Shown here piece by piece: positions 1 through 20,921 of a DNA stretch of 64,000 bases (positions within the stretch are counted from its first letter, which is position 1; the number at the start of each line of letters is the position of its first letter). The notes under the pieces are model-generated. The model saw only the letters and a list, made by a program, of their open reading frames with translations, did no database searches and was not told where the DNA came from. The translations under genes were made by a program, and so were the position numbers. Source of the stretch: a bacterium (GTDB lineage: Bacteria; Bacillota_I; Bacilli_A; RFN20; CAG-288); NCBI GenBank assembly GCA_963648975.1, contig CAVJFW010000001.1, positions 4,199 to 68,198 on the forward strand, in the 5' to 3' direction.

Positions 1-570
1 ATCATCTTCAATCCCGACTATACGGGAAGTGATGTCTATCAGACCTATATTGACACATGCTATGAGCCTTACATCGACAACCAGTGCAGAAGTTATCTTC
101 TTTCCCTCTTCCCGGAATATATGAGTTCCAACAGGTTCATGTCCGACATGATCGTGTTTGTCGAGTTGCCTGTTTCGGTCCTGCTTTCCGGAATCATCAC
201 CTTTGTCGTGCCACCTTTGATTTTCAGAAGGAACAGGCAGACCATCGGAATGCTTGTCTATCATATCGGAAAGGCGGATTCAGCCCTTCTTAGCGTCAAG
301 ACGGGAAGGTTCCTTGTCTATGAGACAATCTATGTCGTAGGCATACTGCTACTATCCTTCTTCACTCTTGGTGTTCCCTTGTTTGTCTCTGCCACGATGC
401 TGATATGTACCAAGGAAAAACAGACTTTCCCGGAATATATGTGTCAGCTTTATGACCTGGACGTCACCAATGACAAGATCTATCATTCCATCAGCGAAAT
501 CGCCATGGAACATGAAAAGGATGCCTTGCTCAGCCAGTCATTCAATCCAGACAGCCGTCTCAACGACTGA
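1..570 (+). CDS. C-terminal part of a membrane protein of unknown function; the 5' end lies outside the window
   Basis: Reading frame 1 is open from nt 1 to the stop at 568-570. Several hydrophobic helix-length segments are present (e.g. IVFVELPVSVLLSGIITFVVPPLIF, VVGILLLSFFTLGVPLFV). No recognisable catalytic motif. Confidence 0.4.
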   Translation: MIFNPDYTGSDVYQTYIDTCYEPYIDNQCRSYLLSLFPEYMSSNRFMSDMIVFVELPVSVLLSGIITFVVPPLIFRRNRQTIGMLVYHIGKADSALLSVKTGRFLVYETIYVVGILLLSFFTLGVPLFVSATMLICTKEKQTFPEYMCQLYDLDVTNDKIYHSISEIAMEHEKDALLSQSFNPDSRLND

Positions 571-651: not shown

Positions 652-679
652 TTGCGTTGTAGGCATTTCTTGCTAAAAT
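652..679 (+). promoter_or_regulatory. Candidate sigma-A promoter (TTGCGT, 16-nt spacer, TAAAAT) for the nine-gene locus
   Basis: TTGCGT at 652-657 and TAAAAT at 674-679, about 50 nt upstream of the ATG at 731. Lies in an AT-rich intergenic region after the upstream gene's stop. Confidence 0.3.
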
Positions 680-730
680 AGATGGACGAGACGATTCCAA
701 TACGCTTTTCAAAAAAAGGAAACTTATCTT

Positions 731-2233
731 ATGAAAATGAGAAAGATTTGGACGTTGATGACGACATTGCTTTTGGGATTCTGTTCCACCTTGGGGGTCA
801 AGACCATGTCTTATTCATTGACTGGCTCAGTGGAAAAGAAGGCAAATCAGGTTACGGAATCCTTATGCGATCCTGACGCTGTGGAAATCACTGATGTCGA
901 TGAGAATTTCAAGGTTACGGTCACGAATGCCACTAAAACGGATCATTCCCAATCCTTTACCATTCGCTTCAAGGCGGAGGAGAGTGAGAATGATTATATT
1001 TTAGGTTATGTTTCTGAAGACGAGAACGGCCTTCATTACCCGCTTGTTGCATCCTATCAGCTGAAGGACAAGGAAACGAAGAAAACGAAGAAGGTTGAAG
1101 AAAAAATACCTATCATTTCGGAAACGAATGCCTTCGATGGCATCGGACCTGGCATGGGTACGACATCCCTGACCTACAATTTTGATTTTGCCTATTCCTC
1201 GGAGTACGAGTTTGTGGATGGCTCCCTGGTCGTCTATAACATCTATGGCGACAAGCGTGATGCCGACGGTTCGGTCATCATCAACAAGGAAGAATCCTAT
1301 AAGTGTGCCATCGACAACAAGGCCAGCGATACCATCGATGTCCAACCTTACTTCAGCGCCAATCTCGAAAATGTCTCGACTTTCGGAAGTTATGTCACCT
1401 TCAATGTGAAGTATGAAAACAAGACAGATGAGCTTTATAAGGTCAAGAAGGCATCGGCCTATAAGAAAAACAAGGAAGAGATCGATAACGGCAAAGCCAT
1501 CATCCAGTCTTCCATCTCCAATGTCCAGTCAGCCTTCTTCCGTCTTGAGTACAAGGACGGAAACATCATTGAATATAACATCTTTGATTATTCCATCACT
1601 TCCACCCAGACGATTCCGATGGGTGAATCGACATCCTGCTATCTGATCAAGGGTATCTCCTTGGAAAATCTCAAGAGCTTCTCTCTTCGTGGTGTATCCC
1701 TTACCGTCCAGGTCTATTCCGTCTTCGATGACGGTGTCACCAAGGTCAAGCCGAATACCAGCCTTGTCGCCAGAGTCGGATGCGTCTACTTCGCAAATGA
1801 GAACGATGATGTCACCAAGGTTTCCACGACAAACGTCATCCTTGTCTATGTGATCGCCGTCCTTGTCTATCTCCTTCTTGTCGGTGGACTTATTGCCGGT
1901 CTCTACTTCTATCAGAAGAACAAATACAAGAATGATGAATTCCGCAGAGTCGATGACAGACGCTTCTTCAAGACTGCCACCATCGCATATGTCGGAGGTC
2001 TTGACTTGCTTCTTGCCATCCTCTCCATTGTCTTCAGGGCCAATGGATTCAACAATACCTATACGACCTTCAATCCACTCGACAACATCATCGTTGTCAC
2101 TTGTATCCTCCTCATCTTCTTCATCGGATACTTCGTCAAATACTTCATCAATTTCTTCAAGGACAGAAAGTCCAGGAAAGAAAGCGAAAAACTCAAATTG
2201 AACGAATCCACTGACAGTGATGGAACCAAATAG
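731..2233 (+). CDS. Surface-exposed membrane protein of unknown function (signal peptide/lipobox-like N-terminus, large beta-rich ectodomain, three C-terminal TM helices)
   Basis: N-terminus MKMRKIWTLMTTLLLGFCSTLG. C-terminal hydrophobic helices VILVYVIAVLVYLLLVGGLIAGLYF, LDLLLAILSIVF and IIVVTCILLIFFIGYFVKYF. Stop lies 12 nt before the ABC ATPase gene. Confidence 0.55.
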   Translation: MKMRKIWTLMTTLLLGFCSTLGVKTMSYSLTGSVEKKANQVTESLCDPDAVEITDVDENFKVTVTNATKTDHSQSFTIRFKAEESENDYILGYVSEDENGLHYPLVASYQLKDKETKKTKKVEEKIPIISETNAFDGIGPGMGTTSLTYNFDFAYSSEYEFVDGSLVVYNIYGDKRDADGSVIINKEESYKCAIDNKASDTIDVQPYFSANLENVSTFGSYVTFNVKYENKTDELYKVKKASAYKKNKEEIDNGKAIIQSSISNVQSAFFRLEYKDGNIIEYNIFDYSITSTQTIPMGESTSCYLIKGISLENLKSFSLRGVSLTVQVYSVFDDGVTKVKPNTSLVARVGCVYFANENDDVTKVSTTNVILVYVIAVLVYLLLVGGLIAGLYFYQKNKYKNDEFRRVDDRRFFKTATIAYVGGLDLLLAILSIVFRANGFNNTYTTFNPLDNIIVVTCILLIFFIGYFVKYFINFFKDRKSRKESEKLKLNESTDSDGTK

Positions 2234-2244
2234 GAGTAAGAAAA

Positions 2245-4170
2245 ATGGAAATCAAATTAAAGAACTTAACCAAAATCTTCCCAGGCAATCCAAAGAAGAA
2301 CATCCGTGACACAATCGCCGTCAACAATCTCGATTTCGAAGTACCGGACGGACAGCTCGTCGGTCTTTTGGGCCCTTCCGGATGCGGTAAATCCACGACT
2401 TTGTATATGATTGCCGGTCTATTGAAGCCGACTTCCGGCGAAGTCTGGTTCGGCGACCAGGAAGTCACCAACCTTCCACCGGAAAAGAGAGGCATCGGAC
2501 TTGTCTTCCAGAACTATGCCCTCTATCCTCACATGACCATCTACAAGAACATCGAATTCCCGCTCACGAACCTCAAGGTCGAGGTCCCGTTGGTCACTTT
2601 CTTTGATTTCACATTGAACTTCACCTACAGGATGAAGGAAAACGATGATGCCGAAGGAATTCTTCTTTCCGTCACATCCCTGGCCAAGAAAATCGGTCTC
2701 AACAAGAAACAGTACACTATCTCCTATCAGACGGAAAACGGTGATCTCAAGCTGACTGCCGCCCTCCATAATGTCTCTGAGGAGGTCAGAAGAATCTTCG
2801 TCGAGAACATGGCCAAGGTTCTTGATGACTACAAGCTTGATGAAGAGAAGGTGCAGACAAGCGAAGCTCTCTTCGATTCCAAGATCAGAGCCGATGTCAT
2901 GGTCAAGAGCGAACTCGAGAAATGCGATGTCAACTTCACGGCCAAACTTACCAGTGACTTCACTACCTCCAAGATGGACGAAATCATCACTGCCATACGC
3001 AATGTTGCCAATAAATACGGAAAGGCCGAAGCCGTCACCATCATCAAGTCAAAGACCGGATATGAGCTTATCGCACGTGTCAAATCCATAAGAAGCGTCG
3101 ATAGGGAAAAGATGGAAGAGGAATTCAAGACAAGTGTGAATTTTGCCTCTTCAAGTCTTGCCGTTACCCATGTCGAGAGCAAGGAATTCGCACTCTCCAT
3201 AAAGAATACCCTCAAGAATCTCAATCTCAGCTTCTCCGACCTGAAGCTCTATTATGAAAAGAACCAGCTGAAGATCTTCCTCATCATCACCAAATCGACA
3301 AAGGATGATGTACAGAAAGGTCTTGACGCCCTTACCACATCCTTGGGTCTTGTCAACATCCAAAACGATACCAGGACTGCCATCACCCACAGAAAGCTCA
3401 CCAAGGCCGAGAGACAGGAAATCGTCTATGAGACGGCCAAGCTTGTCCAGGTCGACGAATATCTCGAAAGAAAGCCGAGTCAGCTCTCCGGTGGTCAGCA
3501 ACAGCGTGTCGCCATCGCCAGAGCCTTGGTCAAGAAGCCGAAGATGCTTCTTCTCGATGAGCCATTGAGTAACCTCGATGCCCGTCTGAGACTTCAGACG
3601 AGAGAGGAAATCAGAAGAATCCAGCAGACGACCGGCATCACCACCGTCTTTGTCACACACGATCAGGAAGAGGCTATGTCCATTTCCGACAAGATTGTCG
3701 TCATGAAGCTCGGTGAGGAACAGCAGATCGATTCTCCACAGAACGTCTATAATTCCCCAGCCAATCTCTTCGTCGGACAGTTCCTTGGAACGCCTCCGAT
3801 CAATGTCTTCGAAGGTGAAATCAAGGATAAGACCGTCTATATCGGAAATGAACCAATCTATAAGACGACGAGCGACATCAAGGACCAGAAGCTCTTTGTC
3901 GCCATCCGTCCGGAAGGCATGATTGCCAATTCGGAAGAGGAATTAGGCTTCACTGCCGATGTCGAACAGGTTCAGGTCCTCGGAAGAGACCTGTTCATCG
4001 TCGCAAGGAACGATGCATGCACGAAGCCGACATTCAAGTCCATCATCTCCTCTGATGAGAAGATCAGTGTCGGCAAGATACGTCTCAGCGTCAAGAAGGA
4101 CAAGTTCTTCCTCTTCGACCATGAGACCGAGCAGCGTATCTATCTTTCCGAAATCAATGAAGGTAAATAG
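2245..4170 (+). CDS. ABC transporter ATP-binding protein, MalK/MsmX (CUT1) type, with a ~270-aa insertion in the ATPase core and a C-terminal TOBE-like domain
   Basis: Walker A GPSGCGKST; Q-loop LVFQNYALYPHMT; signature LSGGQQQRVAIARAL; Walker B MLLLDEP; H-loop VTHDQEEA. The motifs are separated by an unusually long insert (roughly aa 113-385). The C-terminal tail resembles the MalK regulatory/TOBE domain. Confidence 0.85.
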   Translation: MEIKLKNLTKIFPGNPKKNIRDTIAVNNLDFEVPDGQLVGLLGPSGCGKSTTLYMIAGLLKPTSGEVWFGDQEVTNLPPEKRGIGLVFQNYALYPHMTIYKNIEFPLTNLKVEVPLVTFFDFTLNFTYRMKENDDAEGILLSVTSLAKKIGLNKKQYTISYQTENGDLKLTAALHNVSEEVRRIFVENMAKVLDDYKLDEEKVQTSEALFDSKIRADVMVKSELEKCDVNFTAKLTSDFTTSKMDEIITAIRNVANKYGKAEAVTIIKSKTGYELIARVKSIRSVDREKMEEEFKTSVNFASSSLAVTHVESKEFALSIKNTLKNLNLSFSDLKLYYEKNQLKIFLIITKSTKDDVQKGLDALTTSLGLVNIQNDTRTAITHRKLTKAERQEIVYETAKLVQVDEYLERKPSQLSGGQQQRVAIARALVKKPKMLLLDEPLSNLDARLRLQTREEIRRIQQTTGITTVFVTHDQEEAMSISDKIVVMKLGEEQQIDSPQNVYNSPANLFVGQFLGTPPINVFEGEIKDKTVYIGNEPIYKTTSDIKDQKLFVAIRPEGMIANSEEELGFTADVEQVQVLGRDLFIVARNDACTKPTFKSIISSDEKISVGKIRLSVKKDKFFLFDHETEQRIYLSEINEGK

Positions 4171-4172
4171 AC

Positions 4173-5249
4173 ATGAGCGATCCTACTCTTGAACTGAGAG
4201 AGCAGAAAAGTCTGACCGCCACGAATGATTTCTTCGAAGCACGTCCGGAATATCAGGACAGCTACAACGAAGAAAACAACACGATCGTCAGACTTGTGAA
4301 AGCTCCAAAGGCAAATGAAAAGCCTTATAAGATCACCGGCATCGAGGATGTGGCCGCCAAGAACAACTGGAAGGCATGGCTATATATCGCACCGGTCCTG
4401 ATTCTTCTTGTCGTCTTCCTTCTCTATCCGCTCATCAACACCATCTTCATCTCCTTCCTGGACAACTATTCCTACATCGATGGAAGCTTCGATGGTGTCA
4501 CTCTCAACAACTTTGGTGTCATCTTCGGCCTTACCACAACAGCCAGTGGCGGTAAGGAAGTCAACTTCGTGACTTACGCCATTCCGAACACCTTCCTCAT
4601 TGTCTTCATCACCGTTCCTCTGGCCACGTTGATTGCACTTCTCATCTCCGTCGCCCTCAATCAGCTGCCGTTCTTCAAGAAGTTCCTTCAGACGGTCTTC
4701 TTCCTTCCGTATGTCACCAATGCCATCGCCATCGGTATGGTCTTCTCGGTCATCTTTGATCAGAATGGTGTCATCAACTATCTCTTCAACACGGATATCA
4801 CTTGGATCTATGGCGCCAAGAGGGAAGTCGCATTCATTCCACTTTGCATATACATCATCTGGTCCAGTCTTCCCTTCAAGATTCTCATCTTCCTCAGCGG
4901 TCTTCAGGGTATCGACAAGCAGTACTACAACGCGGCCAAGATCGATGGTGCCGGAAGTCAGAAGATCTTATGGAAAATCACTGTTCCTCTCATGTCTCCA
5001 CAGATTCTCTACATCGTCGTCACCAGTTTCATCGGTGCCTTCAAGGAATACACTTCCATCGTTGGCTTATTCAACGGTCCTGGTACCAGCAATGGTTCCT
5101 ACAACATGTACACCATCGTCTACTACATCTACGAATATCTCTCCAAGCAGACCAGTTTGGCTGCAGCCGCAGCCGTCTTCCTCTTCGTCGTCATCCTCAT
5201 CTTCACCGGACTGCAGTTCCTTGTCAGCAAGAAGAGAGTGCATTACTAA
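4173..5249 (+). CDS. ABC transporter permease, MalF/UgpA-like (CUT1 family)
   Basis: Multiple TM helices and the EAA-loop-like segment AAKIDGAGSQKILWKITVPL. Starts 3 nt after the ATPase stop. Confidence 0.85.
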   Translation: MSDPTLELREQKSLTATNDFFEARPEYQDSYNEENNTIVRLVKAPKANEKPYKITGIEDVAAKNNWKAWLYIAPVLILLVVFLLYPLINTIFISFLDNYSYIDGSFDGVTLNNFGVIFGLTTTASGGKEVNFVTYAIPNTFLIVFITVPLATLIALLISVALNQLPFFKKFLQTVFFLPYVTNAIAIGMVFSVIFDQNGVINYLFNTDITWIYGAKREVAFIPLCIYIIWSSLPFKILIFLSGLQGIDKQYYNAAKIDGAGSQKILWKITVPLMSPQILYIVVTSFIGAFKEYTSIVGLFNGPGTSNGSYNMYTIVYYIYEYLSKQTSLAAAAAVFLFVVILIFTGLQFLVSKKRVHY

Positions 5250-5262
5250 GGAGAAATGAAAA

Positions 5263-6228
5263 ATGGAAAAGAAAACTTACATTGATTTCTCCAAGGTCAA
5301 GGTCAATGACAACATCGTCTTATCCTTGGCTGAATCCGACCGCACCGTCGAGGTGATTCAGAAGAGACAGAAGGTCACCAACGTCGTTTCGACAGTGATC
5401 TTATATGTCATCATATTGGCTCTTGCCCTGTTCATGATCTTCCCGTTCTATTGGATGATCATCACATCCCTGAAGAACAATACGGAAGTCATCTCTCCGA
5501 CGCAGACCTTCTATCCGACCATCGTCATGTGGTCCAATTATGTCTATGTCTTCCAATACTTCGATTTCGGCGAATACATGCTCAACACCATCGTCGTCGC
5601 AGCCGTTTCCACTCTGGGAACATTGATCACCACCATTCTTGCCGGCTATGCCTTCGGCAGACTTCAGTTCAAGGGAAGGGAAGCCCTGTTCATGGTCTTC
5701 CTTACCACGATGATGATTCCTGGTGAAATGATGGTCATCTCAAACTACATCACCGTCGCATCCTTCGGTTGGATTGGATCAGGTCAGACAAGACTTCAGG
5801 CTTATGCAGCCATGATCGTTCCGTTCTGGATCAGCGTCTTCTACATCTACCTTCTGAGACAGAACATCAAGCAGATTCCGAATGAACTTTATCTTTCCGC
5901 CAAGGTCGACGGAAAGTCCGATTGGTCCTTCCTTTGGAAGGTTGTCGTTCCGCTTGTCATGCCGACATTGATTTCCATCACCATCCTCAAGTTCATGGGT
6001 ACATGGAACTCCTATGTCTGGCCTAACCTCGTCACCAATGATGCAAGCTACAGACTTATCTCCAATGGTCTTAGAGGTTCGACATTCACGGATTCCGATA
6101 CGGGTATGACTTCCTATGGCTATCAGATGGCAGCCACGGTCTTGGTTACTGTTCCTCTGTTCCTTCTCTTCGTCATCTTCCGCAAGTACATCATGCGCGG
6201 TGTCGGTCGTGCCGGTATCAAAGGTTAG
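5263..6228 (+). CDS. ABC transporter permease, MalG/UgpE-like (CUT1 family)
   Basis: Six predicted TM helices and the EAA-like motif LSAKVDGKSDWSFLWKVVVPL. Tightly linked to the upstream permease. Confidence 0.85.
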   Translation: MEKKTYIDFSKVKVNDNIVLSLAESDRTVEVIQKRQKVTNVVSTVILYVIILALALFMIFPFYWMIITSLKNNTEVISPTQTFYPTIVMWSNYVYVFQYFDFGEYMLNTIVVAAVSTLGTLITTILAGYAFGRLQFKGREALFMVFLTTMMIPGEMMVISNYITVASFGWIGSGQTRLQAYAAMIVPFWISVFYIYLLRQNIKQIPNELYLSAKVDGKSDWSFLWKVVVPLVMPTLISITILKFMGTWNSYVWPNLVTNDASYRLISNGLRGSTFTDSDTGMTSYGYQMAATVLVTVPLFLLFVIFRKYIMRGVGRAGIKG

Positions 6229-6280
6229 TCGATTTGTCACTTCATAAATCTAGATTTAATTAAAAGGGGGTTAGATATTT

Positions 6281-7795
6281 ATGAACAAGAAATTTATTTC
6301 CGTCATCACTTTGCCGTTGATGGTTGCTGCCATGGTGGGCTGCAGCAAGACGGCGACTTCTGCTGCTTCCAATTCTGCCGCACCTTCTGAATCTTCATCT
6401 GCCACCACTGGTCCTCTCATCAAGGAAAAGACCGAAATCACCTTATGGTCCATCACCGGTAAGAACAACCAGGCTCAGCTTCAGTCCTATATCGATAAAT
6501 TCATGAAGGCTGAACCGAATGTCACCGTCAACAATGTCATTCAGACCGGCATGAGCTACAACGAGCTCAAGGAAGCCGTCATCAAGGGCTTCTCTGCCAA
6601 CAACTATCCGGATATGGTTCAGTGCTATGCCGACCACGTCGCCGAATACATCAAGTATGGCAAAGCCGTCAATCTTGATTCCTATATCGACAATGCCGAG
6701 TATGGCTGGACAGCCGAAGACAAGGCCGACATCTATCAGTCCTTCATCACTGAAGGTCAGGAATATGCCACTGCCGGTACCTATTCCGTTCCATATTGCA
6801 AATCCACTGAAGCCATGTATTACAATGCCGATATTCTCATCGGCCTTGATCTTTCCAAGTATGACAGCTCCATCAATGGTGGCAAGAAGCTTTCTGCTGC
6901 CTATCTTGACGATCTGACTTGGGAAGAGCTTTTCGAGCATCTCTGCCCTGCCATTGTCGCCTACAACGATTCCCTTCCGGACAACAAGAAGATTCTCAAG
7001 AACGATCAGGATTATTCTGCTGTCTTTGCCTATGATTCCGATGACAACCTCTTCATTACCTTGGCCAAGCAGTATGGCATCAACTATACTTCCGTCGACA
7101 CGACTACCGGAAAGGGAAAATTCAATTTCGGTGAAGGTGAAGACAAGACCAAGATGGAAACACTTCTCAAGAAGTTTGCTGAGTATGCAAAGAAGGGTTA
7201 CATCATCTCCAAGGGTAGTGCCGGCAACAACTACACCAACACCTACTTCACCAAGCAGAACACCCTCTTCAGCGTCGGTTCCACCGGTGGCTACAAGTAT
7301 CAGTTCGATTCCACCAACCCGATGAATGTCGGTGTCGCAAAGATTCCACATGCCGAAGGAAAGAGCCAGTACACCATCAACCAGGGTCCATCCCTTTCCA
7401 TCCTTGATCATTCCGATGCCAACAAGAAACTTGCTTCTTGGTTGCTCTACAAGACCATCACTGATGAAGAATGCTCTCTTGACTGGGCTTTGAACTCCGG
7501 TTACATGGGTATCAGAAAGTCCAACACCAGCAACGACGAATATAAGGATGCATCTGACTATGAAAGCAAGGATGCAAAGACCATCGACAGACTCTCTGCC
7601 TACAACATGACCTATTCCGGCAGAAGTGATGTTCTCAATTCTCTCTATGTTTCTCCTGCCTTTGTCGGCTCCTCCACGGCCAGAACCCAGGTCGGTGCCA
7701 TCATCACCAAGGTTCTCACCAAGACCAACGATGCCGAAAAGGATATAGATTCCTGGTTCGAGGACGCCTATAACCAGTGTCTCCTTGCCCTTTAA
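6281..7795 (+). CDS. Extracellular solute-binding lipoprotein (SBP family 1-like), copy 1, oversized at 504 aa
   Basis: Lipoprotein signal with lipobox MVGCSK, followed by a Ser/Ala-rich linker. Paralogous to the next gene (shared blocks NYP..YADHVA.Y, SVGSTGG, ARTQVGAIIT). GGAGG-like RBS (aagggggttag) upstream. Confidence 0.75.
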   Translation: MNKKFISVITLPLMVAAMVGCSKTATSAASNSAAPSESSSATTGPLIKEKTEITLWSITGKNNQAQLQSYIDKFMKAEPNVTVNNVIQTGMSYNELKEAVIKGFSANNYPDMVQCYADHVAEYIKYGKAVNLDSYIDNAEYGWTAEDKADIYQSFITEGQEYATAGTYSVPYCKSTEAMYYNADILIGLDLSKYDSSINGGKKLSAAYLDDLTWEELFEHLCPAIVAYNDSLPDNKKILKNDQDYSAVFAYDSDDNLFITLAKQYGINYTSVDTTTGKGKFNFGEGEDKTKMETLLKKFAEYAKKGYIISKGSAGNNYTNTYFTKQNTLFSVGSTGGYKYQFDSTNPMNVGVAKIPHAEGKSQYTINQGPSLSILDHSDANKKLASWLLYKTITDEECSLDWALNSGYMGIRKSNTSNDEYKDASDYESKDAKTIDRLSAYNMTYSGRSDVLNSLYVSPAFVGSSTARTQVGAIITKVLTKTNDAEKDIDSWFEDAYNQCLLAL

Positions 7796-7853
7796 CTGAT
7801 CTGTTTTGATTCAATCGGGATAGCTAGCCCATCCGATTGGGAAAGAGGTAAAA

Positions 7854-9287
7854 ATGAAAAATAAAAAAATATTCTCACTTATCGCTTCATTCACCCTTTT
7901 GGGTGGGCTTTGCTCCTGTTCCGGGACCAAGACTTCCACTTCGAGTGACAACAATTCATCCAGTGGAAAAGTCTCCATTGAATTCTGGCATACCTTCGGT
8001 AAGACGGTCACTGCCGCTTTCGAGTCCAAGATCGATAAGTTCGTCAAGCTTGTCAAGGAAAACGAAAATGTCGATGTCGAAATCAAGATGACATATCAGG
8101 GTGGCTATGATGACCTGCTTGAAAAAGTCCACAAAGGCTTTGCCACGGGAAATTATCCGAACCTTGCCATCGCCTATCCGGATCATGTCGCCCAGTATCT
8201 CAAGGATGAGGGAACCACTGCCGGAAAATATGTCGTTGACCTTTCACAGTACATCAATTCCGAGGAATATGGATTCGGAAAGGAATCCTATTTGGGAGAT
8301 GATGCGTCTTCTGATTTCGTCGATGCCTTCTACAAGGAAGGACAAAGCTATGCAAGAAGCGGCATCTATTCCCTTCCGGTCATGAAGTCGAGCGAAGTCC
8401 TCTTCTACAACAAGACGCAGGTGGCCAAATATGCTGCCCAGTATGATTCCACACTGAACACCGATGCCAAGGTCGAGAAGTTCATGTCCACCCTCACATG
8501 GGACAAGTTCATGGATTTCTGCAGATTCATCAAAAATAAGGCTACGAGCATCGAGGTTCCATTTGTATACGACTCTGATTCCAACCTCTTCATCACCAAG
8601 TGCTATCAGAATGACATAGACTTCCTCTCCATCAACGATGATGGTCAGGGACAGGTCCTCTTCAACAACGATAAGGCCAAGGCAATGGTCACATCATTGA
8701 AATCCTGCTATAACGAAGGACTTATCGCCACTAAGGGCACCTACGGCACTTATTCTTCCGAAAAGTTCACGAATGAGAAATGCTTCTTCACCGTCGGCTC
8801 CACAGGTGGTGCTGGATACAATTACCCATCAGGTGATTCCTTCACCGTCGGTGTCGCTCCGGTTCCCTATGACAACAAGCAGACTTATGTCACCCAGGGT
8901 CTTACCGCAACAGTCCTCAAATATAAGGATACGGATGGAAAGAAGGCCTTGTATTCCTATAAGTTCCTGAAGTATATCACAAGCGCGGAAGTAAATGCCG
9001 ATTTATGTGTCAACGGTTCTGAAGGTTATTCCCCGGTAAGAAATAGTGCCTATGAGACGGACCTCTATCAGGAATACCTGAAGAATGAAGATGACGACTT
9101 TATGCCGAAGGTTGCCAACATCGTCTATAAGGACATCAATGGCAAATACTTCACGACACCTTGCTTCTCTGGCTCTGCAACAGCAAGAGACCAGGTCGGT
9201 GGCATCATCACCCAGGTATTCACCGGTGACAAGACCGTCGACAAGGCATTTGAAGATGCTGAGAACCAGACTAAACTGGCAATGTAG
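7854..9287 (+). CDS. Extracellular solute-binding lipoprotein, copy 2 (paralog of 6281-7795)
   Basis: Lipobox LLGGLCSCSG. Conserved blocks shared with copy 1 (NYPNLAIAYPDHVAQY, TVGSTGGAGYNY, ATARDQVGGIIT). Confidence 0.75.
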   Translation: MKNKKIFSLIASFTLLGGLCSCSGTKTSTSSDNNSSSGKVSIEFWHTFGKTVTAAFESKIDKFVKLVKENENVDVEIKMTYQGGYDDLLEKVHKGFATGNYPNLAIAYPDHVAQYLKDEGTTAGKYVVDLSQYINSEEYGFGKESYLGDDASSDFVDAFYKEGQSYARSGIYSLPVMKSSEVLFYNKTQVAKYAAQYDSTLNTDAKVEKFMSTLTWDKFMDFCRFIKNKATSIEVPFVYDSDSNLFITKCYQNDIDFLSINDDGQGQVLFNNDKAKAMVTSLKSCYNEGLIATKGTYGTYSSEKFTNEKCFFTVGSTGGAGYNYPSGDSFTVGVAPVPYDNKQTYVTQGLTATVLKYKDTDGKKALYSYKFLKYITSAEVNADLCVNGSEGYSPVRNSAYETDLYQEYLKNEDDDFMPKVANIVYKDINGKYFTTPCFSGSATARDQVGGIITQVFTGDKTVDKAFEDAENQTKLAM

Positions 9288-9296
9288 GTACAAATT

Positions 9297-10694
9297 ATGA
9301 AAAAATTGAAATTATTGTTGATTTCCGGGCTTCTCTTCTCTCTTGCATCCTGTAAGACAACCGGAAATGTGACTGCGTCAGAAAACTTAAAATCTCATGT
9401 CGATTATTATCTTTCCGACAATGTGAGACTCAATCTTGACTATGCCAAGAAATCCTTCTGGACGGATGGCGTCGAGAAGGTGTCCCTGAAGACCTGTATC
9501 GATGGAGATACCGCTCACTTCACTACCTCCACGGGAGACACCCTCAAGGCAAGATTCTATGGCATCGATACCCCGGAATCCACCGGCTCCGTCGAGATGT
9601 GGGGAAAGGATGCAAGCGACTTCACCAAGGCAAAGCTGAAGGAAGCTGATGAGAAAGGAACCATCGTCATCTCCTCTCCTTCCACAGCATATGGTGCTCC
9701 GACTCCGGATTCCACCGGTTCAAGATATGTCTCCCTGGTCTGGATCAACCTCACCAAGAAGGACGCTCCTCTCAGCGAACTATATCTGCTTAACCTCTGG
9801 ATTGTCCAGGAAGGTCTCAGCTATGTGAAGAATGTTGCTGACATGCCAGCCCTGTCGGATACATTCTATGCCGCGGAACAGCAGGCCAAGGATGAAAAAC
9901 TCTGTCTCTTCTCCGACAAGACTCCGGACAGCTGGAATGGCGGTGATTATGAGACGGTATCCCTTCTTGACATCAAGAAGGAAATCGAGAAGACGCTTGC
10001 TGATTCCACTCACGAGAACGCCTACAACAACAAACGAGTCAAAATCGTCGGAACGGTTGCCGGGTATGCAAACAATACCCTTTATATCCAGAACTTCTAT
10101 TCCAAGGAAGATGGCGGAAGATATGATTACGGAGAATATGCCGGAATCAATGCCTATACGGGTATGTCCACGATATCCAGCAAATACTCCAAGACGAATA
10201 CCTACATTCAGGTTTGTGGACTATGCCAGGATTCCGAGAACTTCGGCTTCCAGCTCACGGATACACAGTTCAAGCCTTATCCTTCGGATGATGACGAGAA
10301 GAACGCAAGAGTCCTTATCTCAGCCGCTGACAATGTCGATGAGTTCAAGCTTCACACCTTTGAAAAGAAGGCTGCGGAACTTTCCGCTGAAGTCCTCAAC
10401 TGTTCCGTCAAGGTTACGGATGAAGTCACAATCACCGGCGGATATAAGAGTGAGGATGGTGAATATACGCTATATGCTGAAGACTCATCAGGGAAGAAGT
10501 TGGATTGGGATATCTTCATTCCATTCAACTATCATCCGGTCGGAAACGAGACCCTCAACATCGACGATTACGAATACTTTGTCGGTAGGACCTACAAAGT
10601 CGAAGGTGTGTATACCTTCCACAAGTTCTCTTCTGGAAGAATCGGTTATCAGATCGTATTGAACAACAATGCGGGATTGACGGAGGTAATATGA
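9297..10694 (+). CDS. Surface lipoprotein nuclease with an SNase (thermonuclease) domain plus an OB-fold domain and a C-terminal domain of unknown function
   Basis: Lipobox FSLASCKT. SNase active-site-type motif CIDGDTAHF...KARFYGIDTPES. A downstream segment (KRVKIVGTVAGYANNTLYIQNF) resembles the OB-fold nucleic-acid-binding module found in YhcR-type extracellular nucleases. Confidence 0.7.
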   Translation: MKKLKLLLISGLLFSLASCKTTGNVTASENLKSHVDYYLSDNVRLNLDYAKKSFWTDGVEKVSLKTCIDGDTAHFTTSTGDTLKARFYGIDTPESTGSVEMWGKDASDFTKAKLKEADEKGTIVISSPSTAYGAPTPDSTGSRYVSLVWINLTKKDAPLSELYLLNLWIVQEGLSYVKNVADMPALSDTFYAAEQQAKDEKLCLFSDKTPDSWNGGDYETVSLLDIKKEIEKTLADSTHENAYNNKRVKIVGTVAGYANNTLYIQNFYSKEDGGRYDYGEYAGINAYTGMSTISSKYSKTNTYIQVCGLCQDSENFGFQLTDTQFKPYPSDDDEKNARVLISAADNVDEFKLHTFEKKAAELSAEVLNCSVKVTDEVTITGGYKSEDGEYTLYAEDSSGKKLDWDIFIPFNYHPVGNETLNIDDYEYFVGRTYKVEGVYTFHKFSSGRIGYQIVLNNNAGLTEVI

Positions 10695-11170
10695 TGTATT
10701 GCTGTCATTGTGGAAAAGAAGTCGACGAGAATAAGATCGAAGACAAGCGCATGTCAGAAACCATGCATGAAGAGAAGATAGACGAAAATACCACAATCGA
10801 ATATGTCTGCCCGAGATGTGGTCATCTCATCCATCATGATGTCACCAAACAGGAAATCAAGACGTTGGCAGCTGCAAGCCATGCCGAAATCCAAAAGGGA
10901 AGAAACGCCTTCTCCAATGGTATGTCACTCAACTGTGTCGGTGTCATCATTCTGATTTTGGCCATCATCTTCTTCCAGTTATCAAAGAAACCGGCACAGA
11001 ACTTCGCCCTTGTGACGACATGCCCGGAATTCATGGTTTCCATGTTCGCGTTTGCCGTCGGAGGTGTACTTCTCATACTCGGACTTGTCTTCACCTTCAT
11101 CGGTGTCATCAACAAGCATAAATATCAGAAGCTTCTGGAAGACATCCAGGACGATGTCTTCCATCAGTAG
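10691..11170 (+). CDS. Small membrane protein with an N-terminal zinc ribbon (CxxC...CxxC) and two TM helices
   Basis: CHCGKEV...CPRCGH, followed by hydrophobic helices VGVIILILAIIFF and FAFAVGGVLLILGLVFTFIGVI. Start overlaps the nuclease stop by 4 nt. Confidence 0.45.
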   Translation: MMYCCHCGKEVDENKIEDKRMSETMHEEKIDENTTIEYVCPRCGHLIHHDVTKQEIKTLAAASHAEIQKGRNAFSNGMSLNCVGVIILILAIIFFQLSKKPAQNFALVTTCPEFMVSMFAFAVGGVLLILGLVFTFIGVINKHKYQKLLEDIQDDVFHQ

Positions 11171-11213
11171 TCGATGGTTCATGAAATAACGAAAATCAAA
11201 GGAGGTTTAGTTC

Positions 11214-14006
11214 ATGAAAAAGAAAGTGATTCTCAGTGTTGTTTCTTTGTTCTCCCTCTTGGGCATTGCTGGCTGCAACCAAACGGCCACATCCTCTGCT
11301 TCCGATAGTGTATCATCCTCTACTCCGGTTTCCTCTTCTGCAGTTACATTAAGCAAGCTTGCCATCTCCAACAAATCTGATCTTACCAGCTTCTTCTATA
11401 CTTCGGATTCCAACCGTTCCCTTTCCATCGATGTTGATGCCGACAAGAACGTTTCCCAGCTCATTGCCGATGGCGTCATCAAGATCACATCCAGCAATAC
11501 CAGTGCTGTCAATGTCCTGGGTGTCTATGTTGTTCCAGTCGGCGTAGGTGCTTCCACAATCACCGTCACTGGTGGTGGACTTTCCGATACTGTCGACGTC
11601 TATGTCGGAAACCCGACCACCATCGTTCCTGAGGATACGGAAGTCGGTGTTGGCAATACTCTTGCCGTCAGTATTTCTTCCGAGAAGAATTCCAAGACTT
11701 TGACTGATTACAACTGGTCTTCCAGCAACACTGCTATTGCCACCGTTGATGCCAATGGTGTCATCACCGGTGTTGCCAACGGCTCGGTGACCATCACCTG
11801 CAAGCTCAAGAGCAATGAAAAGGAAGGCGCCAGTGTCACTCTGACCGTTAGCGACGATGCTAAGGCTCCTGTTGCCATCAATACCCTTAAGGCAGCTGGA
11901 AACTATACCGTCCGTGGCAAGGTCGTTGCCATCAATACCAATTCCTATATCCTTGATGACGGAACCGGAACCATCATGGTCTATAAGACCTGCAAATTCA
12001 GCATCGGTGACATTGTCAAGGTCAGTGGTGCCGTTGTTGTCTATGGCGCACAGAAACAGCCGGAATTCTCTGGCTCATTCACCGAAACAAAGGTCGGTGG
12101 CTCCGTTACAGCCATGTCTGCCGTCGATCTGACTGTCGATATTCTCAAGGCCGCCAAGAATTCCACTGCCGACACATATTACACTTATGCAAAGCTCTAT
12201 AAGTGGAACGCTACGGCTGTCGTCAACTCTTCCGGTTATTTGGTTTTGAATCTTGCTGATGGCGGCGATGTTGAACCAATCAAACTCAACACAACGACCT
12301 TCCCATACACTGCAGGTCATTATTATTCCGTTGAAGGTTATTGGTGTGGCTGGAACTCTTCCTATAACTATCACGCTTTCGTCATTTCCAAGCTTGAGGA
12401 AGTTGATCCTCCGACTACCATCGTTGAGATTTCCGATTCTGCACTTCAGGTCGACGCCAAGAACACCAGAAAGCTTTCTGCAACCTATGTTCTTTCCAAG
12501 GCTGATGCAGCCGTAAATGCCGTCACTTGGTCTTCCAGCGACACTGCCGTTGCCACCGTTGATCAGAATGGTGTCGTCACCGGTGTTGCCAAAGGTACCT
12601 GTGAAATCATCGCCACTGTCGGTGGCGGAAGCGCAAAATGCAAATTGACCGTCATTGACGAAGTCTCTTTGTCTGCCATCAATACCGTCACGGAGGGTAA
12701 TAAGCTTTACAGAGTCAAGGGTGTCATCACCGAAATCGGAGCCAATGGTTACCTCATCAATGACGGAACTGGTTCCATCTATGTCTATATGCTCAACAGC
12801 TCTGCCTTGGCATATAAGAAGGGTGACTATATCGAAGTTACTTCCAAGACCGCTCTCTTCAAGGGGTCATTGATGTTTGAGAATGTCACCAAGAATGACA
12901 AGAATAAGAGTCAGTATGGTGTCCTTGATGCCGAAGTCTATAAACTTGATGATACTGCCCCGGAGACCGGTGATACCACCAAGGCCACAGCCATGACAAA
13001 GGATATTTTCAATAGTCTTGTCAAGACGACTGAGGCCTCTTCCGTCGCCGCCATCAAGAAGTATTCCTTCACGGCAACCGTCAATGGAGACTATCTTAAT
13101 CTTGAACTTGATGGTTGGGAAGGAAGTAGTGCCGCAACTGTCAAATTCAGTGATTTCACTTCTTCTTCCATGAAGGCCACTTTGAAAGATACCTATAAGT
13201 TCAAGGTTGAAGGCTATTTCATGGGCGCTGATGACAGGAATAAGGAGTTCCTCATCTCCAAGGCAACCAGTGTTGCCCAGACAAGAATCGATCCGACTGA
13301 ATCCAGTGTCATCGTTGTCAAGGGTGGTGATGCCAAGGCTGTCACCTATACATGGTCTTTGGCTGATGATGTTGCAACTGGAAGCGTCGATGTTTCCATT
13401 GACGATACCTCCATTGCCACCATTGCACATGATGCTGGCAAGAAGGAAATCGCCATTACTCCAGTTGCTGCCGGTAAGACAACTATCAATCTTGCCATCA
13501 AGGGAGCTGATGGAAATTCCATTGCCACCAATAAGATTGCCGTCACCGTCGTCTCTTCCAAGGTTGAAATCAAGGCTTCCACGCTTGGCCTTTCCAAGAG
13601 TGCCAAGGATAGCGCAACCGAGGCTACCAAGGATGCAGGTGGCGTTACCTATGCATACACTGCCCTGGGAACGGATTCCAGCAACAACATGATCTTCAGC
13701 TCCGTTAAAAAGAATTCGAATTCCAGTACTGCTTCTGTCCTCAGAAATACGACTGAAATGTCCTCTGGCATCATCGGTTTCGGCATCACCCTCAAGAGCA
13801 ACAGCTATTCCAATAGCGATATCCTTGAATTTAGCTTCGGTGATGATGTCAACTGTGATAAGGGTTCTGTAAAACTCTCTACCACAGCCAATGTCGTTGA
13901 TTACACCATCTATGCTCCAGCATCGACCTATAAATTCTTCAAAATCTCCTATATTGCCTCTGACTACAACCTTTACGTCAAATCACTTTCCGTTCTTCTC
14001 GCCTAA
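11214..14006 (+). CDS. Large surface lipoprotein built from Big_2 (bacterial Ig-like group 2) domains alternating with OB-fold-like modules
   Basis: Lipobox LLGIAGCNQT. At least three Big_2-type signatures (NWSSSNTAIATVDANGVITGVANGSVTITCKL; VTWSSSDTAVATVDQNGVVTGVAKGTCEIIA; SIDDTSIATIAHDAGKKEIAITPVAAGKTTINL). Two OB-like repeats (VRGKVVAINTNSYILDDGTGTIMVY and YRVKGVITEIGANGYLINDGTGSIYVY). Strong RBS AAAGGAGG upstream. Confidence 0.7.
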   Translation: MKKKVILSVVSLFSLLGIAGCNQTATSSASDSVSSSTPVSSSAVTLSKLAISNKSDLTSFFYTSDSNRSLSIDVDADKNVSQLIADGVIKITSSNTSAVNVLGVYVVPVGVGASTITVTGGGLSDTVDVYVGNPTTIVPEDTEVGVGNTLAVSISSEKNSKTLTDYNWSSSNTAIATVDANGVITGVANGSVTITCKLKSNEKEGASVTLTVSDDAKAPVAINTLKAAGNYTVRGKVVAINTNSYILDDGTGTIMVYKTCKFSIGDIVKVSGAVVVYGAQKQPEFSGSFTETKVGGSVTAMSAVDLTVDILKAAKNSTADTYYTYAKLYKWNATAVVNSSGYLVLNLADGGDVEPIKLNTTTFPYTAGHYYSVEGYWCGWNSSYNYHAFVISKLEEVDPPTTIVEISDSALQVDAKNTRKLSATYVLSKADAAVNAVTWSSSDTAVATVDQNGVVTGVAKGTCEIIATVGGGSAKCKLTVIDEVSLSAINTVTEGNKLYRVKGVITEIGANGYLINDGTGSIYVYMLNSSALAYKKGDYIEVTSKTALFKGSLMFENVTKNDKNKSQYGVLDAEVYKLDDTAPETGDTTKATAMTKDIFNSLVKTTEASSVAAIKKYSFTATVNGDYLNLELDGWEGSSAATVKFSDFTSSSMKATLKDTYKFKVEGYFMGADDRNKEFLISKATSVAQTRIDPTESSVIVVKGGDAKAVTYTWSLADDVATGSVDVSIDDTSIATIAHDAGKKEIAITPVAAGKTTINLAIKGADGNSIATNKIAVTVVSSKVEIKASTLGLSKSAKDSATEATKDAGGVTYAYTALGTDSSNNMIFSSVKKNSNSSTASVLRNTTEMSSGIIGFGITLKSNSYSNSDILEFSFGDDVNCDKGSVKLSTTANVVDYTIYAPASTYKFFKISYIASDYNLYVKSLSVLLA

Positions 14007-14017
14007 TTGATTTCATA

Positions 14018-14050
14018 GGCCCACCACATGGTGGGCCTTTATATTTTTTC
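14018..14050 (+). terminator. Rho-independent terminator closing the nine-gene locus
   Basis: GC-rich hairpin GGCCCACC-ACAT-GGTGGGCC followed by a T-rich tract (TTTATATTTTTT), 12 nt after the stop codon. Confidence 0.75.
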
Positions 14051-14101: not shown

Positions 14102-14192
14102 GGAGTAGTACTCAAGTTGGTGAAGAGGAGTCCCTGCTAAGGACTTAGTGCGAGAAATCGCAGCGGGAGTTCAAGTCTCCCCTACTCCGCCA
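14102..14192 (+). tRNA. tRNA-Ser (anticodon GCU), with long variable arm and encoded CCA
   Basis: 7-bp acceptor stem GGAGTAG/CTACTCC. Anticodon stem AGTCC/GGACT with loop CTGCTAA. Long variable arm GTGCGAGAAATCGCAGC. T-arm GGGAG-TTCAAGT-CTCCC. Discriminator G then CCA. Confidence 0.88.
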
Positions 14193-19982: not shown

Positions 19983-20921
19983 ATGACAAAAACAGAATTT
20001 GTCGAGGCCAAGAAGGGCTTGGCTGTCGATAGGGATGAAAGAATCGAAAACAGCAGACAGAATCTCCTTCTCGACAAGAAAGCCTACAAGGAAAAGAAGA
20101 AGTTCTACCGCGAACAGAAGAAGCTCTACAAGCAGGAATATCTTGCCAAGAAGCAGTTTCTGAAGAATGATTTTTCCGGAAACCACGAAAAGGAGACCAA
20201 GATCAAGGAAAGATATCTTTCTCAGGAGGAAATTTCCCAGCTCAGGAAGAAACAGTTGCTTCCTTTCTATCTGCATAGCGAGGAAATCTTCAACATGGTC
20301 ACCCATATCGTCGGTGGTGGCCTTTCCGTCATAGGTCTGATCCTGGGTGTCATCTTTTCCGTGTTGAAGAAGCCGGGAGACATGGTCTCACTTATTTCCA
20401 TGATCATCTTCGGAATCACAAGTATCACCCTGTATGTGATTTCTTCCATCTATCATGGACTACATATCAACAGGGGAAAGAGAGTCTTTCAGGTTCTTGA
20501 CCACTGCACCATCTATATCCTGATTGCCGGAACATATGTTCCGATCACATTGATCGGTTTGGCTGACCATATGCCGTATAACGTCATACTTCTTTCCGTC
20601 GTCGTATTGCTTGCCGTTCTTGGTGTGGTCCTCAATGCGACCATGATGAGAAAGATTCTCGTCAAGGTCATATCCATGATTCTTTATATCGCCATCGGCT
20701 GGGGAATCATCTTCTTCTATCCTTGGCTTGTCACGGGATCATTAGGTATATCCGGTACATGGCTTCTCATCGGTGGAGGTATCACCTATACCGTCGGTTC
20801 CATCCTTTATGGCATAGGTTCAAAGAAGAGATACTGGCATTCCATCTTCCATATCTTTGTCATTGGCGGAACCTTGCTGCAGTATCTCTGTGTCCTTCTT
20901 TATGGCATCATCGGACTATGA
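19983..20921 (+). CDS. Hemolysin-III / PAQR-family 7-TM protein with a ~100-aa lysine-rich N-terminal extension
   Basis: Seven hydrophobic helices. Conserved HlyIII-type motifs (HIVGGGLSVIGLI; SSIYH; HSIFHIFVIGG). Confidence 0.7.
   Translation: MTKTEFVEAKKGLAVDRDERIENSRQNLLLDKKAYKEKKKFYREQKKLYKQEYLAKKQFLKNDFSGNHEKETKIKERYLSQEEISQLRKKQLLPFYLHSEEIFNMVTHIVGGGLSVIGLILGVIFSVLKKPGDMVSLISMIIFGITSITLYVISSIYHGLHINRGKRVFQVLDHCTIYILIAGTYVPITLIGLADHMPYNVILLSVVVLLAVLGVVLNATMMRKILVKVISMILYIAIGWGIIFFYPWLVTGSLGISGTWLLIGGGITYTVGSILYGIGSKKRYWHSIFHIFVIGGTLLQYLCVLLYGIIGL

Follow-up and report, generated by a model that had tools for sequence, protein, structure and literature searches.

A Conserved Gene Cluster of Uncultured Gut Bacilli as a Putative Surface System for Scavenging of Extracellular Nucleic Acid

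The window considered here is a stretch of bacterial DNA of 64,000 nucleotides (nt) (assembly GCA_963648975.1, contig CAVJFW010000001.1, positions 4,199 to 68,198 of the forward strand; GTDB lineage Bacteria; Bacillota_I; Bacilli_A; RFN20; CAG-288). Its positions 731-14006 harbor nine genes, designated g1-g9, encoding an ATP-binding cassette (ABC) importer, two substrate-binding lipoproteins, a lipoprotein of the staphylococcal nuclease (SNase) type, a large multidomain lipoprotein and accessory membrane proteins. This cluster is a real and tightly conserved unit, beyond chance. Judging by its sequence, it represents, with fair probability, a cell-surface scavenger of extracellular nucleic acid importing phosphate-bearing fragments in small-genome, host-associated Bacilli. 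A nucleic-acid-derived substrate had been proposed in a preceding sequence-only reading of the window, and the evidence supports the core of this interpretation, which proves less novel than supposed at that time and wrong in some details. The proposal now draws on synteny seen in both search directions, on the affinity of the binding lipoproteins to a dinucleotide-binding protein, on oligonucleotide/oligosaccharide-binding (OB) modules resembling those of RPA, and on extra SNase and 5'-nucleotidase lipoproteins in relatives; it is from these features that we infer the substrate.

Organization of the Gene Cluster

The nine co-directional genes of the sequence-only reading were all recovered by the calling of open reading frames (ORFs; sizes are given in amino acids, aa):
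g1: 731..2233, + strand, 500-aa membrane protein
g2: 2245..4170, + strand, 641-aa UgpC/MalK-type ABC ATPase
g3: 4173..5249, + strand, CUT1-type permease, UgpA/MalF-like
g4: 5263..6228, + strand, CUT1-type permease, UgpE/MalG-like
g5: 6281..7795, + strand, substrate-binding lipoprotein of the UgpB/U3GBP branch (see below)
g6: 7854..9287, + strand, second substrate-binding lipoprotein, an ancient g5 paralog
g7: 9297..10694, + strand, SNase-type lipoprotein, putative nuclease
g8: 10691..11170, + strand, 159-aa zinc-ribbon membrane protein
g9: 11214..14006, + strand, 930-aa Big_2/OB lipoprotein

The short spacing described earlier was borne out, the gaps between g1 and g9 spanning 2-58 nt, but the "several" overlaps of starts with upstream stops came down to a single one, of 4 nt, between g7 and g8. 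The lipoprotein assignments held, the family alignments of g5/g6, g7 (Cys19) and g9 all showing an invariant lipobox Cys; g1 is not a lipoprotein. Both permeases belong to the CUT1 type as proposed, with the Pfam domain BPD_transp_1 at 1.5e-20 in g3 and 9.3e-18 in g4, and with UgpA (3.3e-18) and UgpE (1.2e-28), respectively, as their NCBIfam matches. The product of g2 is indeed an ABC ATPase; the label "MalK-like" was less fitting, UgpC being its top NCBIfam family (6.9e-104), and a large insertion, treated below together with the accessory proteins, had been overlooked.

Binding Lipoproteins Related to Phosphate-Ester Binders

The presence of two paralogous substrate-binding lipoproteins was corroborated: g5 contains SBP_bac_1 (5.8e-12, Pfam) and matches lipo_P68 (1.4e-11, NCBIfam), and g6, for which no Pfam match was obtained, is 33% identical to g5 (E 6e-67). 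Among the solved structures, the top match of g5 was 7C0F (E 1e-8) and that of g6 was the 7C0x series (E 3e-13); overall, the nearest solved relatives of both proteins form the series 7C0F-7C1B, followed by the UgpB proteins. According to Table S5 in the Supporting Information of PMC12718374, which cites Chandravanshi et al., FEBS J 2021, 7C0F is a Thermus thermophilus binder of the dinucleotide uridylyl-3'-5'-phosphoguanosine (U3G), hence the designation of the U3G-binding-protein (U3GBP) branch. A family profile built of 44 g5/g6-type members was searched against the PDB sequences and returned the following:
Thermus U3G binder: E 8e-27, 97 bits, the best of all PDB sequences
Escherichia coli UgpB: E 8e-18, 67 bits
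Mycobacterium tuberculosis glycerophosphocholine (GPC) binder: E 1e-11, 47 bits
Sugar binders: E 1e-6 or worse

As reported in the comparison of these binders in PMC12718374, the phosphate is coordinated by two Tyr and two Ser residues with strict conservation among UgpB and the GPC and U3G binders, but not among glucose binders. To locate this signature, 70 g5-type and 74 g6-type orthologs were aligned with E. coli UgpB, the sequence of which was checked against 4AQ4. The equivalents of UgpB Y42, S121, S247 and Y323 turned out to be invariant in all 144 proteins, as was that of G284; the position of R374 is occupied by Arg in all but two. In g5, the signature consists of Y93, S175, S334 and Y408 along with G369 and R468, all invariant in the 70 orthologs; in g6, it comprises Y85, S179, S316 and Y392 along with G349, invariant in the 74 orthologs, and R445, which is Arg in 72 of them. 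In the same alignment, UgpB Glu66 is replaced by Pro or Ala, Trp169 by Asp, Ser or Ala, and Trp172 mostly by Phe, also by Tyr or Ile. This combination of a retained phosphate signature with the loss of the glycerol ligands suggests that g5 and g6 are phosphate-ester binders other than glycerol-3-phosphate (G3P) binders. Moreover, the retention of both paralogs across the whole clade suggests two specificities, so g5 and g6 probably differ in this respect.

The SNase Lipoprotein and Its Partners in Relatives

The SNase active-site motif noticed initially in g7 was confirmed by the Pfam match to PF00565 (2.2e-8), the domain spanning approximately residues 60-210. The protein aligns to staphylococcal nuclease, and its residues D69, D71, R86, D91, T92, E94 and R143, invariant in 25 diverse relatives, are equivalent to D19/D21, R35, D40, T41, E43 and R87 of the latter, i.e., to its Ca-binding and catalytic residues. 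The OB fold that had been assigned to the remaining part of g7 did not find such confirmation. For the C-terminal ~250 aa (residues 215-465), Pfam returned no match at E<=1, and a family profile of the region returned none from PDB at E<=10; the comparison of this region with the g9 modules was negative in BLASTP and gave hhalign probabilities below 4%. An OB fold would fit its strand-like sequence pattern.

The enzymatic equipment around the transporter is richer in certain relatives. Between g7 and g8, 14 of the 80 genome loci encode an additional lipoprotein of ~380 aa, which is a second SNase (PF00565, 3.5e-11), and a 5'-nucleotidase-family lipoprotein (Metallophos + 5_nucleotid_C) adjoins the cluster in 14 genome and 6 metagenome loci, directly 3' of the position-9 gene in the loci inspected. 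The cluster of the window itself is devoid of a 5'-nucleotidase gene. Examples (locus:coordinates) are as follows:
Second SNase: L016:11410-12540; L019:11452-12591; L022:3489-4628; 11 further loci
5'-nucleotidase lipoprotein: L015:13537-14964; L028:13935-15362; L039:15554-16996; L051:15318-18437 (two in tandem)

These additional lipoproteins, recognized by their domains, seem to reinforce the nucleic-acid theme of the locus.

The Large Lipoprotein with OB Modules

The product of g9 had been described as a protein built of Big_2 domains and two OB-type modules, and this architecture was reproduced in the AlphaFold2 (AF2) model (mean predicted local distance difference test score, pLDDT, 85.8), with immunoglobulin (Ig)-like domains and a small domain designated X also discernible:
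Residues 45-132: Ig-like domain
Residues 135-213: Big_2
Residues 225-296: OB barrel, followed by domain X at 300-396
Residues 400-481: Big_2
Residues 495-555: OB barrel, followed by domain X at 575-686
Residues 690-780: Ig-like domain
Residues 782-930: beta sandwich

In the model, each OB domain forms a five-stranded barrel (strands within 229-294 and 498-555, respectively). The [OB + X] module occurs in duplicate, the first copy matching the second with an hhalign probability of 99.8% (E 1e-27). Pfam detected Big_2 at 9e-19 and, at 2.3e-5, a sub-threshold match to tRNA_anti-codon. The OB profile searched against PDB retrieved yeast Rfa2 (3.8e-6) as well as RPA14 and RPA32 from archaea and the RPA of Methanococcus; the top nine matches were all RPA-type OB folds binding single-stranded DNA. 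The search of PDB with the whole model of g9 by Foldseek returned only multi-Ig chains at low TM-scores and was uninformative on the OB modules. By profile and model, the OB domains of g9 are RPA-like.

Conservation of the Cluster

In the first search, a nuclease profile used against one genome per species yielded 80 loci, the nucleases of which show 43-76% identity. On every contig of sufficient length, these loci had the same gene order, i.e., g1-g2-g3-g4-g5-g6-g7-g8-large lipoprotein. The sizes of the proteins were also similar across the loci: 500-730 aa for the g1 type, ~636 aa for the ATPase, ~360 and ~325 aa for the permeases, ~495 and ~485 aa for the binding proteins, ~480 aa for the SNase, and ~158 or ~228 aa for g8. 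Since this search was baited with the nuclease, a reverse test was carried out with the binding-protein family as the bait against metagenome contigs, counting the loci with enough flanking DNA. The SNase was found at the expected place in 56 of 57 metagenome loci, and the ATPase together with g1 in 45 of 45; g8 was present in 50 of 50 metagenome and in 79 of 80 genome loci. The nuclease thus travels with the transporter in both search directions.

At position 9, nearly every locus encodes a lipoprotein, although the protein evolves fast and its size ranges across loci from ~400 to ~1220 aa. Among the 56 position-9 proteins examined, Big_2 was detected in 28 and PF01336 in 12 (best 6.4e-10).

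One locus retrieved with the binding-protein bait, L120 (OHQF01003832.1), contains a g5-type gene followed by three unrelated ORFs in place of the second binding protein and the nuclease; it is the sole such exception among the loci obtained with this bait and could be a rearrangement or a misassembly.

The relatives possessing the cluster are uncultured Bacilli from gut and rumen, represented by metagenome-assembled genomes and including Candidatus Enterosoma, Candidatus Onthovivens, Clostridium sp. CAG:288, "uncultured Mollicutes" and "Bacilli bacterium"; the two Candidatus genera are placed by NCBI under Bacilli incertae sedis. The window shares 99.5% identity over 12.3 kb with CAVEUQ010000006.1 (GCA_963618855.1; locus L081). 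The two sequences differ over this length by 35 substitutions and one gap; as the comparison of gene coordinates shows, the gap is a 27-nt indel within g5, which encodes 504 aa in the window and 495 aa in L081. The indel presumably sits in the Ser/Ala-rich linker past the lipobox.

Proposed Mode of Action

According to the model favored here, g9, held off the membrane by its Ig-like domains, would bind DNA or RNA via its two RPA-like OB modules. The polymer would be cleaved by the SNase lipoprotein g7, as its catalytic residues imply, and the products expected from established SNase chemistry would be 3'-phosphorylated mono-, di- and short oligonucleotides. The phosphate-bearing fragments might then be captured by g5 and g6, presumably with differing specificities, via the Tyr/Ser/Ser/Tyr signature and handed to the g3/g4 permease pair powered by the g2 ATPase, the latter roles following from family membership.

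A bolder version of this model, possible rather than probable in our opinion, envisages a dedicated surface machine of ~11 genes importing 3'-nucleotides, dinucleotides or short oligonucleotides directly by way of a Ugp-related ABC importer, with twin specialized binders, a surface RPA-like OB "DNA catcher" and a new, regulatory ATPase insertion talking to g1, g8 and RDD-like partners (see below). If true, this would be the first defined bacterial oligonucleotide/nucleotide ABC importer, and it would reveal the substrate, sought for so long, of the homologous transporters in mycoplasmas.

The supply of wall-less and small-genome bacteria with nucleotide precursors is a standing question, and the mycoplasma operons have been cited for more than a decade without a defined substrate. 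In the lineage described here, the same core is fixed and strongly conserved in a large group of uncultured gut and rumen bacteria, and the binding proteins connect it to the only dinucleotide-binding protein with a solved structure as well as to a phosphate-binding signature. The standard genetic code would permit the direct expression of the proteins in E. coli, which is harder for mycoplasma genes, where UGA is a sense codon. If confirmed, the proposed function would explain how extracellular nucleic acid sustains abundant uncultured bacteria of the gut and could guide the design of cultivation media.

Alternative Explanations

Several points weigh against the scavenging model. The likeness to the U3G binder covers the overall profile and the phosphate signature, and the signature, being common to glycerophosphodiester binders, cannot alone separate nucleotides from glycerophospho-compounds. 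The OB match of g9 in Pfam amounts to 24.7 bits, below the cut-off of 27. In some relatives, the surface 5'-nucleotidases would yield phosphate-free nucleosides, unfit for the phosphate site. Finally, the comparison with the Mycoplasma operons, presented in the next section, was made by gene content, family matches and published descriptions, and the Mycoplasma pneumoniae mutant in MPN133, a lipoprotein of homologous context, grows poorly on glycerol.

The glycerol phenotype and the signature common to the G3P and GPC binders are also in line with the main rival explanation, i.e., a Ugp-like importer of G3P or glycerophosphodiesters involved in lipid head-group scavenging, in which case the nuclease and g9 would be either neighbors or a broad phosphodiesterase and a polyanion binder. 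The same is true of UgpC, UgpA and UgpE as the best NCBIfam matches of the ATPase and permeases and of the UgpB-family match in 27 of the 44 binding proteins (NCBIfam). Such an importer is, however, difficult to reconcile with the absence of the glycerol-binding Glu66 and of the clamp residue Trp169 of UgpB from 144 of 144 orthologs and with the score of the U3G binder, 30 bits above that of UgpB and 47-50 above that of the GPC binder. There is no GlpQ-type gene within the cluster, and the transporter has one or more SNases, an RPA-like OB protein and, in some loci, a 5'-nucleotidase as its constant or recurrent partners. Taken together, this makes the Ugp-like function rather unlikely.

Another possibility, which appears quite improbable, is the import of unphosphorylated nucleosides or bases after full digestion at the surface by the nuclease and a nucleotidase. 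The 5'-nucleotidase lipoproteins adjoining the cluster in ~20 related loci would suit it, as would the gene of the uridine-kinase family located elsewhere in the window (42013-43647). The cluster of the window, however, lacks the nucleotidase, and the invariant phosphate-coordinating signature of the binding proteins would be out of place in a nucleoside importer. In addition, the known nucleoside ABC importers employ binding proteins of the Bmp/PnrA type, which have a different fold.

The combination of SBP_bac_1 with CUT1 permeases is typical of sugar systems, and Big_2/beta-sandwich domains are common in glycan-active surface proteins (cf. the bglH match), so one had to consider a plain CUT1 importer of oligosaccharides, with an incidental nuclease and with a lipoprotein that acts as a Big_2 adhesin or binds glycans. 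It was rejected as very improbable on the grounds of the binding-protein signature and the strict nuclease coupling (56 of 57 loci obtained with the binding-protein bait); besides, sugar binders were retrieved by the family profile with much lower scores than phosphate-ester binders, and no glycoside hydrolase is encoded within the cluster. The alternative raised in the sequence-only reading, namely that the locus prepares DNA for, or feeds it to, the ComEA/ComEC competence route for transformation, is scarcely credible and was rejected for lack of linkage: it relied only on the presence of comEC, comEA, dprA, cinA and recA in the same window, but these genes lie 3-50 kb off (comEA, comEC, cinA and recA on the other strand), none of them turned up in the cluster or among its conserved neighbors in ~160 related loci, the SNase would destroy transforming DNA, and binding-protein ABC importers handle small ligands.

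Relation to Known Systems

In mycoplasmas, an SNase lipoprotein is encoded beside an ABC transporter, with the lipoprotein P80/P81/MslA upstream, as described in PMC4045577 and PMC3585158; the nucleases concerned include mhp379, MAG_5040, MGA_0676, MBOVPG45_0310, MHO_0730 and MPN133. The same two papers report the binding of single- and double-stranded DNA by MslA, and in PMC3585158 P80 is modeled as a solute binder of the periplasmic-binding-protein-II type and overlapping transcripts are reported in Mycoplasma agalactiae, where transcription is polycistronic. The earlier remark that the role of the accessory proteins in Mycoplasma had not been defined was, in view of these publications, an understatement. 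A capture-cleave-import model is explicit for mycoplasmas in PMC4045577 and in reviews (as a "putative nucleotide transporter operon"); therefore, the idea pursued here is not new in kind.

By analogy, the locus of the window appears to be an expanded relative of the Mycoplasma MslA/P80-SNase-ABC operon. Both combine an SNase lipoprotein, a binding lipoprotein of the periplasmic-binding-protein-II type, an oversized ATPase and two CUT1-type permeases. In the window, the SNase lipoprotein retains intact catalytic residues, the two binding lipoproteins are encoded directly upstream of g7, and the co-directional permease pair with the UgpC/MalK-type ATPase lies next to them, as it does in all loci with enough sequence. 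Furthermore, 33 of the 44 g5/g6 family members match the P68 family surface lipoprotein (NF045826) of NCBIfam, which we take to be a mycoplasma family. Regarding the ATPase, the comparison is by size only: the Mycoplasma bovis gene has a length of 2103 bp (PMC4045577), so it is also oversized, and the protein of the window comprises 641 aa with a split ABC_tran domain. The gene order is different, the transporter genes preceding the binding proteins and the nuclease in the window; two paralogous binding proteins of ~490 aa are found in place of one of ~730 aa in Mycoplasma. Unlike the Mycoplasma operon, the locus also includes a separate Big_2/OB lipoprotein as a candidate polymer binder, as well as g1, g8 and an RDD-like pair, and it belongs to another host lineage with the standard genetic code. 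What is new here is the twin binding proteins with their structural kinship, the OB-fold lipoprotein, the ATPase insertion, and three to four conserved membrane proteins.

The U3G binder of T. thermophilus is the closest solved sequence to g5, g6 and their family profile and has the Tyr/Ser/Ser/Tyr set in common with them; it is distant all the same (97 bits for the profile) and is not a lipoprotein. To our knowledge, no nuclease partner of this Thermus protein has been described. The E. coli system UgpBAEC resembles the locus in the top NCBIfam matches of the ATPase and permeases and in the phosphate signature, Gly284 and Arg374, but differs from it in Glu66 and Trp169 (replaced here) and Trp172 (Phe here), in the ~260-aa insertion of the ATPase and in the constant coupling with a nuclease.

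The surface nucleases of the YhcR/YfkN type known from Bacillus subtilis comprise OB folds, SNase and 5'-nucleotidase in one wall-anchored polypeptide. The same set of an OB of the PF01336 type, SNase and, in some relatives, 5'-nucleotidase co-occurs around the transporter considered here, where these modules are separate lipoproteins in a transporter operon. With the second SNase and the nucleotidase neighbors taken into account, the OB fold, SNase and nucleotidase thus recur as separate lipoproteins around the transporter.

The ATPase Insertion and Accessory Membrane Proteins

The Pfam domain ABC_tran of g2 is split in two stretches by an insertion of ~260 aa (residues ~118-380; window 2596-3384) located inside the nucleotide-binding domain, after the Q-loop region and before the segment preceding the LSGGQ signature. 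As follows from the conservation profile, the insertion is present in all orthologs and is fast-evolving, being far less conserved than its flanks; it contains a partial internal repeat. Among 1.8 billion representative proteins, the insertion had only 10 matches, all from close relatives, and no link to Mycoplasma emerged from this search. The ATPase also possesses a C-terminal domain of the regulatory type.

The descriptions of g1 as a surface protein with three C-terminal transmembrane helices and of g8 as a zinc-ribbon membrane protein were both upheld by models and alignments. The g1 protein has an N-terminal signal or anchor and a tandem beta-sandwich ectodomain (residues ~45-368) ahead of the three helices; its model was obtained with a pLDDT of 82.9 and a predicted template modeling score (pTM) of 0.72, and the search for structural neighbors with this model returned nothing informative. 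The top conserved residues of g1 are cytoplasmic: KxKYxNDEFxR after the first transmembrane helix and NPxD are invariant, and the C-terminal DGT is near-invariant. The g8 protein features an N-terminal zinc ribbon (CxxC...CPxCG), with Cys motifs conserved in 78 orthologs, and two predicted transmembrane helices.

Two more membrane proteins, designated up366 and up344, accompany the cluster in the majority of loci; their genes precede g1, as in the window, or follow the last gene of the cluster, as in other lineages. They are paralogous multi-pass proteins of 366 and 344 aa; their similarity to the RDD family is weak (E 0.002 and 0.015, below the Pfam cut-off). The conserved neighborhood consequently comprises ~11 genes, extending upstream of the nine-gene cluster. 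The window cuts up344, and the full genes are found in the close relative:
up366: L081:7713-8813
up344: L081:8806-9840
up344, 3' end (last 189 codons): window 1..570, + strand, frame open to the stop at 570

The insertion of g2, the g1 and g8 proteins and the RDD-like pair constitute conserved accessory parts; given the conserved cytoplasmic motifs, one might speculate that they participate in assembly or regulation at the transporter.

Just upstream of the RDD-like pair in the relative, ~3 kb before the point corresponding to the window start, a 429-aa protein with a SIR2_2 domain is encoded (L081:6427-7716). In other loci, this gene does not accompany the cluster; it may be a defence gene.

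Boundaries of the Cluster and Other Features of the Window

The following elements delimit the cluster:
Candidate sigma-70-type promoter (TTGCGT, 16 nt, TAAAAT): 653..680, + strand, read by eye
Intrinsic-terminator-like hairpin with T-run: 14017..14048, + strand, closing the cluster
tRNA-Ser(GCT): 14102-14192, the next feature after the terminator, by ARAGORN

The promoter at 653-680, located in the 160-nt AT-rich gap before g1, is plausible from its sequence; a consensus promoter scan did not list this element, and the Rfam scan of the gap revealed no family and no riboswitch. At the other end, a terminator-like hairpin followed by tRNA-Ser was found much as had been described, the hairpin stem (14017-14038) consisting of 9 bp, 7 of them G-C, and preceding the T-run. 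The tRNA-Ser(GCT) was recognized by ARAGORN, though the Rfam scan of the whole window at the gathering threshold gave zero matches, the tRNA family included.

Two further ORFs of the window have an unusual domain composition. The 609-aa ORF at 20723-22552 (+ strand, TTG start) combines a tyrosine recombinase domain (Phage_integrase, XerC/D-like) with a HAD-family hydrolase domain and may represent either a genuine fusion or a pair of genes joined by the mechanical ORF call. The ORF at 42013-43647 (+ strand) encodes a 544-aa protein with a uridine-kinase/PRK domain in its C-terminal half, preceded by an unassigned N-terminal half, an extension unusual for a nucleoside-salvage enzyme.

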